DNA of 64,000 bases from a virus (lineage: Duplodnaviria > Heunggongvirae > Uroviricota > Caudoviricetes), in IMG/VR virus record IMGVR_UViG_2609460060_000003, positions 1 to 64,000 of that record, one strand, 5' to 3'. Shown here piece after piece: positions 47,125 to 52,425 of this stretch. The first letter of the stretch is position 1; each line of letters begins with the position of its first letter. Made by a program: the position numbers and the translations under genes. Under the pieces are notes generated by a model. It was not told where the DNA came from. It searched no databases and was given only the letters and a program-made list of their open reading frames with translations.

Positions 47125-49709
47125 AAGAGCTGTGCTATGGATCTGTTTGCAGTGGAATTGAAGCCGCGAGTATTGCCTGGGAACCGTTGGGTATGCGTCC
47201 GGCGTGGTTTGCTGAAATCGAGCCTTTTCCATCTGCCGTTCTTGCGCACCGCTGGCCCCATGTCGCCAACCTTGGCGACATGACAAAACTTGCCAAAAAA
47301 GTCCTGGCTGGGGAAATCGAATCCCCTGATGTGCTCGTCGGGGGAACACCTTGTCAGGCATTCAGTATCGCTGGATTACGTGGTGGGCTTGATGATGAGC
47401 GTGGCGCGCTAACTTTAAAGTATGTGGAGCTTGCAAATGCAATTGACGACAAACGGGCTGAGTCATTTCTCAAACCAGCCGTTATCGTCTGGGAAAATGT
47501 CCCAGGAGTCTTGTCATCGGCAGATAACGCCTTCGGATGTTTCCTTGCCGGATTGGCTGGAGAAGATGCGCCATTTGAACCAGGTGATCGACCTGAATCA
47601 GGAAAAAGTAACGCGTTCTGGCGGTGGGATGGCAAAACCGGTTGCCATGCTCCAAAGTGGCCGCAGTGTGGTTGTATTTATGGACCGCAGCGAAAGGTGG
47701 CCTGGAGAATCCTTGATGCCCAATACTTCGGAGTGGCACAACGACGCCGACGCGTGTTTGTTGTCGCAAGTGCTCGAACAGACCTCGATCCCGCAACGGT
47801 ACTTTTTGAGTTCGAAGGCGTGCGCCGGGATATTGCGCCGAGCAGAGGCGAGGGGAAGGAAGTTGCCGGAAATGTTGGAAATGGCATTAAAAGCGGGAGC
47901 CATTGGGATAACCCTGTAAATCCGCACCCGACACTTAACCAGTCACACAATACTGGCGGGATCGGCGCAAGTAACCAGGAGATTTTTGCGCAGCGCGGAA
48001 GTGGGCTTGTTGGTGCTTATCGAATGGTTGCATTTGGCGAATATGCTGATGATGAGACTGCTTCTACTGTCAAGGCCAGAGATTTTAAAGATGCAACCGA
48101 TTTAGCAGTTTTCAGTAGTACTGGTGCTGGTATTTGGCGTGAAGGTGCAGGCACTCTTCGTGCCAGATCACAAGAAAGTCACGAACATCTGGCAGTGATG
48201 GCTATTCATGGAACACAAGATCCTGATGTTAATTGTGAATTGGCACATACTATTGGTCGTAACCATGGTCAAGAAAATGCAGTCGTAGCTTTTTCCTGCA
48301 AAGATTATGGACAAGATGTTTCTATTGAATGTTCTCCGACTTTACGATCTGGTAATGCTGTTAATAGCAATCCAAATGCAGGATGCCCACCAGCTGTTGC
48401 GTATTCGCTACAACATGCACAAATTGGGCGAAAAGATGATGCTGGACCGCAGGGTAAAGGGTGGCAAAAAGAGATAAGTTTTACTCTTGATTCCCGCGCT
48501 ACAGCTGACGCCGTTGCGTTATCTTTTGGGGGGCAGAAAAGTATTGAAAAAGGCAATTTAGGTGAGAATGGTTACTTACCTCATATGATGAGTGTTCGCC
48601 GTCTTACCCCTGTTGAATGTGAAAGGCTGCAAGGTTTTCCTGATGGGCATACGTTGATCCCTACGGAAAAGCGTAAAAAAGTTTCTTCAGATGAACTGGC
48701 ATACCTTCGCAATAACTATCCTGATTTAAGTGAAGAAGAGGCCGCGATGCTTGCAGCTGACGGACCGCGTTACAAAGCGATCGGCAATAGTATGGCGATA
48801 CCAGTAATGCGCTGGATTGGCGATCGGATTGCCAAGGCTGCATGTCGGCAGAAGGAAGGGAGTGAAACAAAAGAGCGAAAAGTTAAACCAGCGGCAGAAT
48901 TCGAACGGTCCATATTCAAATGGGCTGGTGGAAAATTTGGTGTTCTGGAACAAATCTTTCGCTATTTGCCAGAAGGGAAGCGCCTGATTGAACCTTTCGT
49001 TGGTGGCGGAGCTGTCTTCATGAATGCCGGATACCAGGAAAATCTGCTAAATGATGTGAATGCTGACCTGATTAACTTTTACAAGACTTTGCAACGTGAG
49101 GAACGTTCACTTATCACTCTGGCGCATCGGTTTTTCCAGGACTACAACACACAGGAAGGATACCTGGCAGTACGGAGTGCGTTTAACAAACAAGTCTATG
49201 ATGATTTACATCGCGCAGCGGCGTTTTTGTTCCTGAACCGACATTGTTTTAACGGATTGACGCGTTACAACCAGGCCGGTGAGTTCAATGTCGGTTATGG
49301 GAAGTATAAAACTCCGTATTTCCCATTACAGGAGATGGAAGCCTTCCTCGGTGCGGAAGGGCGGTCTGAGTTTGTATGCGGTGATTTTGCAGCGGTGATT
49401 GAAGCTGCCGGAGAAGGTGATGTCATCTTTTGCGATCCGCCGTATGAACCGCTTCCAAATACAGAGGGATTCACGAACTATTCCGGTCATGACTTTAAGT
49501 TTGAAGAGCAAAAACGCCTGGTGTCTCTGTTGACGGATGCTCATCGTCGAGGTGCAAAGGTTCTCATTACTAACAGTGGCGCGCCAAACATCAGAGAGCT
49601 TTATCATGACAGTGGCTTCAGAGTGGAACATCTTTTTGCCAGACGTTCTGTGTCTTGTAAGGGGGACACTCGAGGTGTAGCTCATGACGTTTTGGGTATA
49701 TTGCTCTAA
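47121..49709 (+). CDS. dmt: Bifunctional DNA methyltransferase (C5-cytosine MTase-like N-terminal domain with PCQ motif; Dam-like N6-adenine MTase C-terminal domain with DPPY motif)
   Basis: [12 protein letters not shown] (m5C motif IV) in the N-terminal part; WAGGKFGVL...DPPYEPL in the C-terminal part. Confidence 0.85.
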
Positions 49710-49729
49710 TAAATTTATTAGTGTAATAT
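49700..49729 (+). promoter_or_regulatory. Perfect C1 operator overlapping a promoter (TTGCTC-N17-TAATAT)
   Basis: ATTGCTCTAATAAATTT exact consensus at 49700-49716, overlapping the dmt stop. Confidence 0.6.
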
Positions 49730-49890
49730 CGCCTCAATGAATCGTGATTTATAGAGCGATTTAGCTGTTAGCCGCGACAGGCGCGGCGGTAAGCATGGCT
49801 GGGCCTAGTCCTCCCAGACAAACCACCGAGTTGCCAGGTTGACCATGCGCCTAAGTGGCAACGCCGAAGTGCGTTACGAGCTTCCAGTTT

Positions 49891-49917
49891 GCCCATCTTC
49901 GGGTGGGCGTTTTTTTC
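49891..49917 (+). terminator. Intrinsic terminator about 180 nt downstream of the operator-promoter
   Basis: GCCCATC-TTCG-GGTGGGC followed by TTTTTTT. Confidence 0.65.
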
Positions 49918-50382
49918 AGGGTTTTCGTCATGGTTAGCGACTTTGCGGCGGTTTAGAAACTGACCATTAAAGTAAATGCAAACGATGATCTGATGATGGT
50001 AGCGGCCTAAGAAACCAGATGCCACGGGGTATGAGTCGTCCCCCGTCAAAAAAATCGACCGCAGAGTGTCCCCGTCTGTGTATTAGGGAACGGGGAGGCA
50101 CAACAGGTAAGGGCGCTGGTGTGATTAACCAGATGAACGAGAAGGGGCCATCTGTTGGTCAGCGTCCTTTCCTGTTGCGTTTTCTTTTCAGCGTAACAGC
50201 GGTGCTTAACAGCACTTTGGGTACAGTTCCACGAATTTACGGGTATATCCCGTCATGCTGAAGGCGCTAATCACGCTGGAAGCCAGGGTTGTGCATCCCC
50301 TGTTACCGAATTGCAGCCAGGGCGCGGTGCGCCGAAAAGCATACGGAGGTGGAAGCCCTCGCCGGAGACGTACCCGGCAAGT

Positions 50383-50457
50383 GATGGTGTAGCTCAGCGG
50401 TAGAGCAGTTGGCTGTTAACCAACTGGTCGGTGGTTCGAATCCACCCACCATCGCCA
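50383..50457 (+). tRNA. tRNA-Asn (anticodon GUU)
   Basis: Cloverleaf folded by hand: acceptor GATGGTG/CACCATC, D-arm GCTC-AGCGGTA-GAGC, anticodon loop CTGTTAA, T-arm GGTGG-TTCGAAT-CCACC, encoded CCA. Confidence 0.85.
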
Positions 50458-50462
50458 CTTTA

Positions 50463-51360: not shown

Positions 51361-51795
51361 ATGTTCGGTAAATTGTTCGGCAAGAAAGTCGCTTCTGCAA
51401 AAGTAGAGCTGAAAAAAGTTGAGAATCGCGATCTGATGGAGGCCATCATCGGTGGCTGTTTGTTGGTGTCTGCCGCTGATGGTGAAATCGAAAAAGAAGA
51501 AACAGCGAAACTTGATCAGCTTGTCCGCTCTAATCCGCGTCTTAGTCATTTTGGTAACGAAATTACTGCAACAATTACCCGCTTTACCGAGCAACTGGAA
51601 GCTGGCTTCCGTGTTGGTCGCATGAATATCCTTCGCGAAATTGAAGATATCAAAAACGATCCAAAAGAAGCGGAAGAAGTATTCGTTAACATGCTGACAA
51701 TTGCAGAAGCGGACGGTGAAATCGAGCCAGCAGAACACAAAGTACTGGAAGAAGTAGGCCGTCGTTTAGGTCTTCGTGTGGAAGATTATCTGTAA
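51361..51795 (+). CDS. tciA: TerB-domain protein (TciA-like)
   Basis: 144 aa with two AADGEIE repeats typical of TerB. Confidence 0.75.
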   Translation: MFGKLFGKKVASAKVELKKVENRDLMEAIIGGCLLVSAADGEIEKEETAKLDQLVRSNPRLSHFGNEITATITRFTEQLEAGFRVGRMNILREIEDIKNDPKEAEEVFVNMLTIAEADGEIEPAEHKVLEEVGRRLGLRVEDYL

Positions 51796-51959
51796 TGGCA
51801 AGCAAGGCACGTATCGCAATCGCCATTGGTTTTCTCTTGCTGTCCGTGCTGGTGGATTTCACCAGCACAATCCTGTCAGTTTTATCGGACGGGGCGTTGG
51901 TGGCAGTAGCTGTAACATTGGTATGGCCGATATTAAAAACAGCTTCTAAGGATCAGTGA
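51795..51959 (+). CDS. Small membrane peptide (TciB-like), translationally coupled
   Basis: 54 aa, ATG overlaps the tciA stop (TAATG); two hydrophobic segments; below the track cutoff. Confidence 0.4.
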   Translation: MASKARIAIAIGFLLLSVLVDFTSTILSVLSDGALVAVAVTLVWPILKTASKDQ

Positions 51960-52066
51960 TGGGCTTCTGGGATTTTGCTGACAAGCATCCAATTGTTCTC
52001 GTTGTCATTGCTGGCATAGTTGTAGGCGGTATTGCTGGCGTCATAGAAGCACTCAGGAAACAGTAA
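51959..52066 (+). CDS. Small membrane peptide (TciC-like), translationally coupled
   Basis: 35 aa, ATG overlaps the upstream stop (TGATG); single TM segment. Confidence 0.35.
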   Translation: MGFWDFADKHPIVLVVIAGIVVGGIAGVIEALRKQ

Positions 52067-52069
52067 TCC

Positions 52070-52145
52070 GGCCCTTTAGCTCAGTGGTTAGAGCTGGCGA
52101 CTCATAATCGCACGGTCACCGGTTCAAGTCCGGTAGGGGCCACCA
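52070..52145 (+). tRNA. tRNA with CAU anticodon (Met or lysidine-modified Ile2)
   Basis: Acceptor GGCCCTT/AGGGGCC, D-arm GCTC-AGTGGTTA-GAGC, anticodon loop CTCATAA, T-arm CCGG-TTCAAGT-CCGG, encoded CCA. Confidence 0.8.
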
Positions 52146-52425
52146 TATTTGGTTGTAACACGGCGTCTGGCACATGCGTCGTTAGCGGTCTGGTGACGTT
52201 AAAAGGGGGGAACCTTGCCCCTAGCTCAGGCAACGAACCAGGTAGCCGGAATGTGCAAGCCACCGTTTGTTGTTTCTCGGGTAAAGGGATTCACCATCCT
52301 GGCGATTCGGTGTGACAGCCGGGAAGAGTCCGGCGCATTAATCCTGATTTTCTGGTGATGACTCATATCGTTAGGAGTGATTTGAGTATGCCGATTATAT
52401 CTGACATTCAGCACGCCTGGGTGGA

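Follow-up and report, generated by a model that had tools for sequence, protein, structure and literature searches.

RNase III processes hairpins in the N-leader of phage lambda and in the intercistronic regions of T7, and in the polycistronic transfer RNA (tRNA) operons of Escherichia coli the cleavage by RNase P at a downstream tRNA releases the tRNA that lies upstream. The RNAs of phage T4 known as species 1 and 2 have tRNA-like ends and a helix that is sensitive to RNase III, and the precursor of the C4 RNA of phage P1 is a substrate of RNase P, which gives a precedent for tRNA-like processing in P1 itself. GOLLD and ROOL, reportedly described by Weinberg and colleagues in 2009 and 2017, are said to be structured phage RNAs that lie beside tRNA genes and combine conserved frames with variable regions. 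The locus described here occupies positions 49700–52431 of a 64,000-nucleotide (nt) stretch of tailed-phage DNA (Caudoviricetes; IMG/VR record IMGVR_UViG_2609460060_000003, positions 1–64,000; hereafter, the window), and holds four tRNA genes together with four long hairpins (E1–E4) and two frames of a second kind (S-A and S-B). It is common to see in a phage tRNA island no more than a list of tRNA genes; in this island the genes are set among RNA modules that are conserved and folded. E1–E4 and the S frames are RNA structures under selection, and the family to which they belong is widespread, has escaped annotation and occurs together with the tRNA genes of phages.

The E and S modules as a family of RNA structures

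A preliminary description of the window had pointed out at least four related elements of approximately 90 nt in this region, and the four long hairpins exist: computed against dinucleotide shuffles, their folding z-scores lie between -4.2 and -6.0 (Table 1), and the interval 50630–51330 folded as a whole gives -4.6. Their stems consist of 18–23 pairs with one bulge or mismatch each, which is the duplex length (approximately 20 bp or more) expected of an RNase III substrate. The motifs that relate them to one another are present far above chance: AACAGGTAAGRG occurs three times, always in this region and on the plus strand (0.33 occurrences expected per 64 kb), and TTGYGRTGAAKGC occurs twice (0.07 expected). 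The consensus first drawn from them was, in its details, slightly too general. E3 begins with ACAACGTTGAG and not with ACAGGTAAG, E1 ends in GTTGCG followed by TTTTCTTTTC and lacks the RTGAAKGC tail attributed to the group, the tail of E2 has one additional base (ATGAAGTGC), and the 20-mer thought to be common to E3 and E4 differs at one base (GGGGTCATATCCCAATCTAC versus GGGTTCATATCCCAATCTAC). The tRNA-like T-arm noticed in one of the elements is indeed there, in E2 (GGGTTCGAATCCC).

The elements had been seen as paralogs within a P1-like genome, but they are members of a large family with compensatory base changes that extends over many phage types. Sensitive blastn searches place pieces of 50630–51330 in the unannotated leaders of unrelated temperate phages; in mEp460 the homologous pieces lie just upstream of dicB and after DicF, and a Klebsiella phage has, between a Q-like gene and the holin gene, a tRNA with a complete E element after it. 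At least 120 viral contigs contain the junction motif CCRTTGYGGTGAATGC; it is preceded there by approximately 80 distinct elements that have a single architecture and unrelated inserts, approximately 100 distinct variants have the stem in common, and E4 is the commonest variant. (The family was gathered by its 3' motif, and the S frames by a fuzzy consensus.) Each E module is a hairpin of 65–130 nt with a conserved lower stem that carries a U·U-type mismatch, a covarying upper stem and a hypervariable insert. The 5' arm consists of CACAAC and, past a bulged A, of GG, one base of the mismatch and AAGAGCATTG; after an unrelated insert of 20–100 nt, the 3' arm runs through CAGTGCTCTT, the other base of the mismatch and CC to GTTGTG. 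In RNA form the stem is CACAAC-A-GG-U-AAGAG.../...CUCUU-U-CC-GUUGUG. Across the 48 stem frames of alignment A1, 88.7% of the cells are paired, against 81.1% in shuffled alignments (none of 500 shuffles reaches the observed value) and 40–55% in slid controls, and both sides have changed in 12 of the 18 pairs. G·U pairs number 58 and A·C mismatches eight, which identifies the transcribed (sense) strand as the one that folds.

The tail GTGAATGC that had been noticed after the hairpins is the start of the second module, the S frame. This consists of a 7-bp closing stem (UGUGGUG/CACCACA), a three-base linker, hairpin 1 (GCGCA-GGCUGA-UGCGC), a variable insert of 30–150 nt, and hairpin 2 (GCCGG-AGAUCAGCA-CCGGC), which abuts the closing stem. 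The corresponding parts of S-A are UGUGGUG/CAUCACA, GCACA-GGCUGA-UGUGC, a variable insert and GUCGG-AGUUCAGCA-CCGAC. Among 43 S frames, 98.3% of the cells are paired and seven pairs have changed on both sides; the loops of S-A are complementary, and in two contigs GCUGA/UCAGC is switched to GUCGA/UCGAC, a compensatory change in a loop-loop (kissing) contact. A GCCGG...CCGGC hairpin that resembles the 3' hairpin of the S frame also precedes E elements. The copy upstream of E3 (CCGTAACCGGCA) had been considered as a 3' remnant of tRNA-Thr, an idea that was dropped because the same hairpin precedes E in loci that have no tRNA-Thr. A CCA-like tail follows 19 of 50 S frames; it was not retained as proof of tRNA mimicry, since it is enriched without being general and is confounded by shared ancestry.

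Rfam searches of the window's hairpins, at the gathering score and at E ≤ 10, returned only chance matches to microRNA precursors and a match of S-B to STnc100, and the canonical E and S-A units match no family. The S-B match lies below the gathering score of RF02076 (47) and covers only model positions 31–147 of 206, which falls short of membership. A stretch homologous to S-B lies just upstream of dicB in mEp460.

The junction block is present in 835 of 5426 complete E. coli genomes (nearly all the listed records have no annotated feature at that place, and one has it under a hypothetical-protein coding sequence), in 19 species-representative genomes, nearly all of Enterobacterales, and in 130 phage records, virulent phages included. 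The phages that carry the block or the E stem are lambdoid, P1-like, N4-like, siphoviruses and Ackermannviridae, and no record annotates the modules as RNA, the phage records leaving them unannotated or covering them with small 'hypothetical proteins', among which are plp and upl of P1. The modules are always co-oriented with the flanking transcription, and an intrinsic terminator is often found just upstream of them. In 57 loci from viral contigs, the nearest upstream open reading frame (ORF) on the same strand encodes a Q antiterminator (32 loci, four Pfam families), a CI-type repressor (nine) or Dmt (two), and the nearest one downstream encodes a holin of one of several families in 23 of 56 loci; this context places the modules in the late leader, past tR', or in the pL leader. 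The modules are also associated with tRNA genes: the E-bearing loci, 588 kb in all, contain 50 such genes, and 49 of these are no more than 1.5 kb away from a junction motif, all of them on the same strand. The repertoire is variable and comprises Arg, Ile/Met-CAU, Asn, Thr, Ser, Tyr, Gly, Phe and Lys.

The link with tRNAs is also seen in individual phages. In the virulent siphovirus KP591P1 the junction block is followed by tRNAs Ser-Arg-Met. An unannotated gap of 2.1 kb in IME11, which is N4-like and virulent, holds X (a further module, described below), E and S modules, and then tRNA-like elements and tRNAs. In the virulent Klebsiella phage Magnus (Taipeivirus) the block lies where tiny 'hypothetical' ORFs follow one another over 2 kb, and in N4-like 3HA13 a long hairpin directly follows tRNA-Thr and an E-like element has the same U·U mismatch, an AAGA/UCUU core and an internal T-arm.

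Three side observations concern these loci (designated L and a number). In Magnus (L151, 670–2700), six annotated ORFs of 31–57 codons span a stretch that contains the E/S unit and is probably non-coding RNA, and in which ARAGORN finds no tRNA. In IME11 (L152, 2106–2181), ARAGORN calls a tRNA with an undetermined anticodon beside a tRNA-Ile(AAT), and clearly degenerate tRNA-like sequences lie upstream, at approximately 1710–1870. Among the viral-contig loci L010–L129, the ORF directly downstream of the E/S array gives one Pfam match to a Tad2-like (Thoeris anti-defence 2) protein and three to the N4 gp49 / Sf6 gene 66 family, and this slot appears to collect accessory and anti-defence genes.

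The ban leader and its tRNA genes

The window is a P1-like phage-plasmid. Between 49700 and 52400 it is 97–98% identical to records of Escherichia phage P1, with a coverage of 98% in OP279344, 89% in P7 and 76% in the reference P1 (NC_005856), and the plasmid CP012494.1 is 100% identical across the tRNA cluster. The matching P1 records annotate Oban, the tci genes and ban; mapped to the window, this annotation puts the end of dmt at 49709 and the start of ban near 52432. The letters of Oban and of the ban promoters, ATTGCTCTAATAAATTT, can be read directly from the window, and operator and promoters at one end with ban at the other make the region the 2.7-kb leader of the C1-controlled ban operon (Table 1). 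On the plus strand inside the island the scan for sigma-70-like promoters found none, and the terminator scan found a U-tract only after E1 and, upstream of E1, a terminator-like hairpin only at 49890. A literature search on RNA processing in the ban operon returned nothing.

Table 1. Positions of the features of the ban leader in the window and the evidence for each.
Feature	Positions	Strand	Evidence
C1 operator Oban and promoters P1ban/P2ban, start of the ban operon transcript	49700–49727	+	98.5% identity to NC_005856 68667–68694 (annotated divalent C1 operator, promoters)
'dicF-like region' of the P1 annotation	49824–49925	+	ends in terminator-like hairpin 49890–49909 plus T run
X module, TTTAGAAACTGACCA...AAATGCAAACGA	49921–50010	+	common to 13 non-P1 loci
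E1, long hairpin, U-rich tail after it	50099–50179	+	z = -5.9; inverted repeat I2; in alignment A1
tRNA-Asn (GUU)	50383–50457	+	ARAGORN; Rfam RF00005, 75.5 bits
tRNA-Tyr (GUA), class II, 87 nt	50463–50549	+	ARAGORN; RF00005, 41.9 bits
tRNA-Thr (UGU)	50554–50629	+	ARAGORN; RF00005, 74.9 bits
E2, long hairpin (allele E2a, internal T-arm)	50631–50717	+	z = -5.0; T-arm repeat D4
Short S-like hairpin, GTTGTGATGAAG...CTTCACAAC	50712–50769	+	read from sequence
E3, long hairpin	50854–50953	+	z = -6.0; inverted repeat I1, 23 nt, 91% complementary; common to 21 non-P1 loci
S-A frame	50946–51044	+	row 1 of alignment A4; minimum free energy fold cloverleaf-like multibranch
Small conserved hairpin GCUCC-ACGAAAC-GGAGC before E4	51115–51131	+	recurs directly upstream of E in many viral contigs
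E4, long hairpin	51133–51211	+	z = -4.2
S-B frame, 5' untranslated region of tciA	51208–51323	+	Rfam RF02076 (STnc100), 43.0 bits, E = 2.4e-7, below the gathering score
tciA (TerB-like), tciB (DUF3927), tciC	51361–52066	+	ORF list; annotations in P1 and P7
CAU tRNA	52070–52145	+	ARAGORN label Met; RF00005, 64.7 bits; P1 annotation trnI (ileX-like, tRNA-Ile2)
Untranslated stretch before ban	52146–52431	+	52236–52328 common to 9 non-P1 loci

Loci outside the P1 group share with the window the intervals 49921–50010, 50850–50975, 51057–51151 (common to 20 such loci), 51193–51250 and 52236–52328. The first of these is the X module, which precedes E in lambdoid late leaders and in IME11; it was rejected as an obligatory partner of E, since it lies upstream of only 13 of 114 junctions. 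Within the island, tciA, tciB and tciC are the only convincing ORFs. The covariance model of DicF (RF00039) gives 76.7 bits for the real DicF of mEp460 and no match at E ≤ 10 in 49650–52450, and the 'dicF-like' stretch was therefore rejected as DicF: its likeness is to the sequence that flanks DicF in mEp460, positions ~49775–49870 resembling the stretch upstream of the real gene (L007, 2810–2900). At the place of DicF itself, within 49775–49917, the window has a different short sequence and a strong terminator-like hairpin (49890–49917), possibly a distinct small RNA.

Other observations concern the spaces between modules. In the P22-like phage SPN9CC, a stretch homologous to the short S-like hairpin at 50712–50769 lies 18 nt ahead of gene N; a boxA-like GCTCTTTGAAGCAA at 50727 is not conserved in the SPN9CC homolog and is hence taken as chance. 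Just upstream of tciA, TCTAATAAATATGTCACTTTTAT (51325–51347) has 74% identity to part of Oban (repeat D9) and could be a weak additional C1 operator half-site; in several viral contigs, too, this sequence comes after an S-B frame. The interval 52161–52328, which separates the CAU tRNA from ban, has approximately 81% identity with Stx and lambdoid phages (e.g., TL-2011b) and may be a further conserved RNA module. Elsewhere in the window, Rfam recognizes domains D1–D4 of a group II intron at 12778–13047 (96.9 and 46.8 bits), which indicates the insertion of such an intron into this P1-like element; a sok antitoxin RNA at full length at 32968–33142 (114 bits), which implies an addiction module of the hok/sok type; and, at 29314–29520 (immI region), the C4 antisense RNA and its a1/b1 target sites, both above the Rfam thresholds.

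All four tRNAs of the preliminary description (Asn-GUU, Tyr-GUA, Thr-UGU and the CAU tRNA) are called by ARAGORN and exceed the gathering score of RF00005 (29). The tRNA-Tyr has the anticodon loop CTGTAAA, a variable arm of approximately 15 nt and the 3' end ...ACTCCCC-A-CCA (A73, encoded CCA), and its identity to E. coli tyrT is approximately 70%, with the same anticodon stem-loop core. It had been regarded as an addition to the P1 set, and it is absent from the reference P1 (NC_005856), P7, D6 and OP279344, in which the gap between Asn and Thr is of 2 nt; however, it is not unique to the window. An identical tRNA-Tyr is annotated in vB_EcoM-Ro157c2YLVW (L004), the same sequence is present in the viral contigs L017, L042 and L063, and the Asn-Tyr-Thr query is covered to at least 80% in 242 of 990 matching plasmid records, approximately a quarter of the related plasmids. 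It is a known accessory allele and a functional-looking cassette in a variable array. In N4-like phages, Asn, a class II Ser-UGA and Thr stand in the same order with the same short spacers (77% identity), so that a three-gene ancestor with loss in the lineage of the P1 reference is as likely as a gain here.

The CAU tRNA looks like ileX: the P1 record notes that trnI is 89% identical to E. coli ileX, and the pairs C4-G69 and C5-G68 can be read from its sequence. In tRNA-Ile2 of the ileX type, in which a CAU anticodon reads AUA after lysidine modification, such pairs act as determinants for TilS. In 38 long ORFs of the window, ACA makes up 25% of the Thr codons and ATA 17% of the Ile codons, and Tyr codons are 2.8% of all codons, a share near that in E. 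coli. Going by E. coli codon usage, the tRNAs for Thr(UGU) and of the ileX kind would fit codon compensation, and the tRNA-Tyr has no obvious role of that kind. Being unexplained by codon usage, tRNA-Tyr is a candidate for the tRNA-based counter-defence that has recently been described for other phages.

P7 (L003, 2786–2872) and D6 (L005, 2607–2693) have, in place of 50969–51196, an unusual gene resembling tRNA-Ser(UGA) with an E-type hairpin directly after it. In the D6 record, tRNAscan-SE gave this gene no amino acid, and the tRNAs are placed on the strand opposite to that of the ARAGORN calls.

Proposed action of the modules and competing explanations

The interpretation that we favour, and to which we give about an even chance of being correct, is that 49700–52431 is the C1-repressed leader of ban, built as a mosaic of RNA modules that serve in cis as scaffolds for the folding, processing and stability of a precursor of tRNAs, small RNAs (sRNAs) and mRNAs. 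Once C1 repression is lifted, the whole leader would be transcribed as one precursor with the four tRNAs and the E and S modules, and these, acting in cis, would fold the untranslated transcript into compact domains. RNase III would cleave the E stems of approximately 20 bp, and RNase P or RNase E would cut at tRNA-like junctions such as that of E2, which starts 1 nt past the CCA of tRNA-Thr, so that a cut at its base would free the 3' end of the tRNA. Presumably to the benefit of the phage, the tRNAs and small RNAs so released, and the mRNAs of tciA and ban, would receive from the modules a stable structure at the 5' or 3' end; in at least one validated sRNA, PasD1, an S-type frame makes up the structured 5' part. 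The modules are not inventions of P1, and are shared by recombination with the lambdoid late leader (from Q/tR' to holin), the pL leader and the tRNA regions of virulent phages. Among the three options of the preliminary description (pseudo-tRNAs, processed small RNAs or mobile remnants), that of processed small RNAs is the most plausible.

Several points weigh against this interpretation. Each RNase named in it is one that we infer, and RNase III needs no sequence conservation as strong as that of the lower E stem and of the 40-nt junction block (100% identical in unrelated Klebsiella phages), which points to a more specific partner. The motif-based collection of the family inflates its apparent conservation, though it creates no compensatory changes. 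The 3' strand of the E base (GUUGUG) has 4 nt in common with the 5' strand of the closing stem of S, and in the C-variant of E4 (CGUAAC/GUUGCG/CACCGCA versus the canonical CACAAC/GUUGUG/CACCACA) both partners track the Y position (one variant, compared by eye), so a single static fold does not explain everything. Furthermore, PasD1 probably has a promoter of its own, and S frames therefore need not be processing products.

Independent sRNA genes are the first alternative: each module would encode a trans-acting sRNA dependent on Hfq or ProQ, like PasD, STnc100 and DicF, and its variable insert would be the seed for mRNAs of the host or of rival phages. We regard this as rather unlikely. The resemblance of S-B to STnc100 speaks for it, as do the presence of DicF in the homologous leader of mEp460, the hypervariability of the inserts, which fits fast-evolving seeds, and the case of PasD1, an Hfq-bound sRNA with mapped targets whose mapped 5' end is the first base of an S-type closing stem (end from PMC8550237, table S6); PasD and STnc100 have been reported as related prophage sRNAs (Zhu et al., 2026, bioRxiv 10.64898/2026.05.13.724894). 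In enteropathogenic E. coli, PasD1 lies in a late leader, between a gene for a DUF3927 (TciB-like) protein and the holin gene. Small RNAs are also abundant in infection by P22, where they come from places in the leader ahead of genes 24 and 13 (PMC13397905), but these are not sequence homologs, and P22B and P22E were rejected as relatives, their positions being analogous and their sequences dissimilar. The scans of the leader likewise run counter to separate genes, with no internal plus-strand promoter predicted and terminator-like signals confined to E1 and the 49890 hairpin, and the seed of PasD1 lies outside the S frame, in a 3' single-stranded part that is missing here, where the Rfam match stops at model position 147.

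In the prophage PP4 of strain E2348/69 (L149, 862–1233; NC_011601, 1060061–1060432), the DUF3927 gene is directly upstream of PasD1 and the holin gene, an order that mirrors S-B, tciA and tciB in P1. RefSeq covers PasD1 with an antisense 'hypothetical protein' of 132 codons.

A bolder reading, and an unlikely one, is that E and S modules, sometimes with X, make up an undescribed modular RNA system of Enterobacterales phages, in which conserved tRNA-like frames matured by the host tRNA machinery would display hypervariable cargo beside genuine tRNAs, as 'tRNA-scaffold' cassettes that phages exchange by recombination; the cargo could act as decoys or guides, and the near-invariant 40-nt junction block would dock one specific factor of the host or the phage. 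If this were true, the cargo could serve against host defences (e.g., tRNA-targeting nucleases) or in the takeover of the host.

The elements might instead act as DNA, as inverted-repeat recombination linkers or hairpin sites (similar to attC or to miniature inverted-repeat transposable elements) that swap tRNA and small-RNA cassettes, the RNA fold being a by-product. The P1-like relatives do differ at module boundaries. The presence or absence of tRNA-Tyr is one such difference; the window has the allele E2a (whose insert is conserved in lambdoid loci), P7 and Ro157c2YLVW have E2b, and OP279344 has both as a duplication; an insertion of 162 nt precedes E3 in Ro157c2YLVW; the tRNA-Ser and a different E element replace 50969–51196 in P7 and D6; and other genes can replace tciABC. 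Conserved flanks around unrelated inserts, and a tRNA content that varies like that of a cassette array, are in line with this, and the AAC...GTT stem base, the extrahelical bases and the variable terminal structure recall the attC sites of integrons. Compared with attC in detail, the elements have its AAC/GTT triplets together with a bulged base and a centre that varies; their cores are RYRYAAC/GTTRYRY (RYYYAAC...GTTRRRY in attC), and the spacing of the boxes differs. As to the surroundings, the nearest ORFs are those of Q, CI and holin and not of an integron integrase or a transposase, what lies between elements is tRNAs or non-coding RNA, and the favoured strand is the transcribed and not the bottom one. 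The constant co-orientation with the operon, the excess of G·U over A·C, by which only the sense strand folds well, and the covarying loop-loop contact of the S frames, which has no obvious meaning in DNA, make a DNA-level function quite improbable. No target-site duplications were noticed on reading the flanks, where no systematic test was made. Recombination at conserved modules probably explains the mosaicism, and not the conservation of the modules; mobile remnants, as first suggested, fit only in this sense of modules shuffled by recombination.

It is very improbable that the hairpins are pseudo-tRNAs, that is, decayed genes of a once larger array without present function. The perfect T-arm of E2 just before its 3' strand, the T-arm motifs in seven of 73 family inserts (0.39 expected), the tRNA-Ser(UGA) that P7 and D6 have in place of 50969–51196 and the clearly degenerate tRNA-like sequences of N4-like regions speak for this reading. 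This T-arm is, however, a recurrent minority feature, missing from approximately 90% of the inserts; ARAGORN and Rfam tRNA models match none of E1–E4 at E ≤ 10, the long conserved stem has no counterpart in a tRNA, and the same stem is kept in all the phage types listed above. Its compensatory changes indicate that it is under selection and not decaying, so that the pseudo-tRNA option does not hold for most elements.

The weakest alternative, that the repeats are parts of two real minus-strand protein genes antisense to the E elements, plp (50600–50977, 125 codons) and upl (50978–51169, 63 codons), is scarcely credible: both ORFs are open in the window and annotated in NC_005856 (Plp as a putative lipoprotein), but P7 and OP279344 annotate neither, in-frame stops interrupt plp in L004 and L017, an insertion splits it in L001, L034, L083, L120 and L044, and P7 has part of it replaced, upl is interrupted by an in-frame stop in L124 and replaced in P7 and D6, the last ten codons of plp are antisense to tRNA-Thr, and the predicted Plp is rich in Cys and Ser, its sequence tracking the hairpin arms. 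This lack of conservation in P1-like relatives leads us to treat both as spurious; the elements had been called non-coding, and that stands, even though P1 has annotated genes over the hairpins, a circumstance that the preliminary description had itself named as refuting evidence and that formally applies.

Comparison with known systems

Recognition of the family would clear spurious ORFs from annotations, would explain the mosaic breakpoints in the variable region of P1-like plasmids, and would offer a testable handle on the maturation of phage tRNAs and small RNAs from long untranslated transcripts. The modules recur in the early and late leaders of lambdoid phages, the slot that also holds Shiga toxin genes, morons, PasD and STnc100.

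With the RNase III hairpins of phage leaders (lambda N-leader, lambda sib, T7 R1.1-type) and with the dicF processing region of the dicB operon, the E modules share long, near-perfect stems with single bulges or mismatches, located in untranslated parts of operons, and the likeness to the dicB operon extends to the 'dicF-like' stretch and the S-B homolog, which flank the real DicF in mEp460. Known RNase III sites, to our knowledge, share no sequence consensus, whereas the E stems of unrelated phages have a consensus of 20 nt in common, with the bulge and the place of the mismatch constant. Species 1 and 2 of T4 (rnaC, rnaD) are, like the E and S modules, structured RNAs other than tRNAs that lie in a phage tRNA cluster, and are co-transcribed there; unlike them, they are two fixed genes and not a modular family with variable inserts, and no sequence relationship is to be expected. 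GOLLD and ROOL have one large, fixed architecture, in contrast to the E/S units, which are smaller, vary in order and belong to phages of Enterobacterales hosts, and the Rfam models of GOLLD and ROOL match neither the window nor the canonical E/S units. The engineered tRNA scaffolds of Ponchon and Dardel resemble the S frames in shape only, as a cloverleaf with its central arm replaced by cargo and with the closing stem, the first and last hairpins and a loop-loop contact retained. The loops of the S frames pair by Watson-Crick bases and not as T-loop and D-loop.

Close counterparts are also the prophage sRNAs STnc100, PasD1 and PasD2 of Salmonella and pathogenic E. coli. STnc100 has, like S-B, a 7-bp closing stem, a start in GGUGAAUSC and a last hairpin that abuts the closing stem, and PasD1 begins with an S-type frame. 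S-B differs from STnc100 in lacking the 3' part of the model, with the seed and the terminator, and in being the 5' untranslated region of tciA within a longer transcript, and the E hairpins and S-A frames differ further, matching no Rfam family. We regard the hairpins of the ban leader as a variant of the structures of phage leaders and sRNAs that is new and has a broad distribution.

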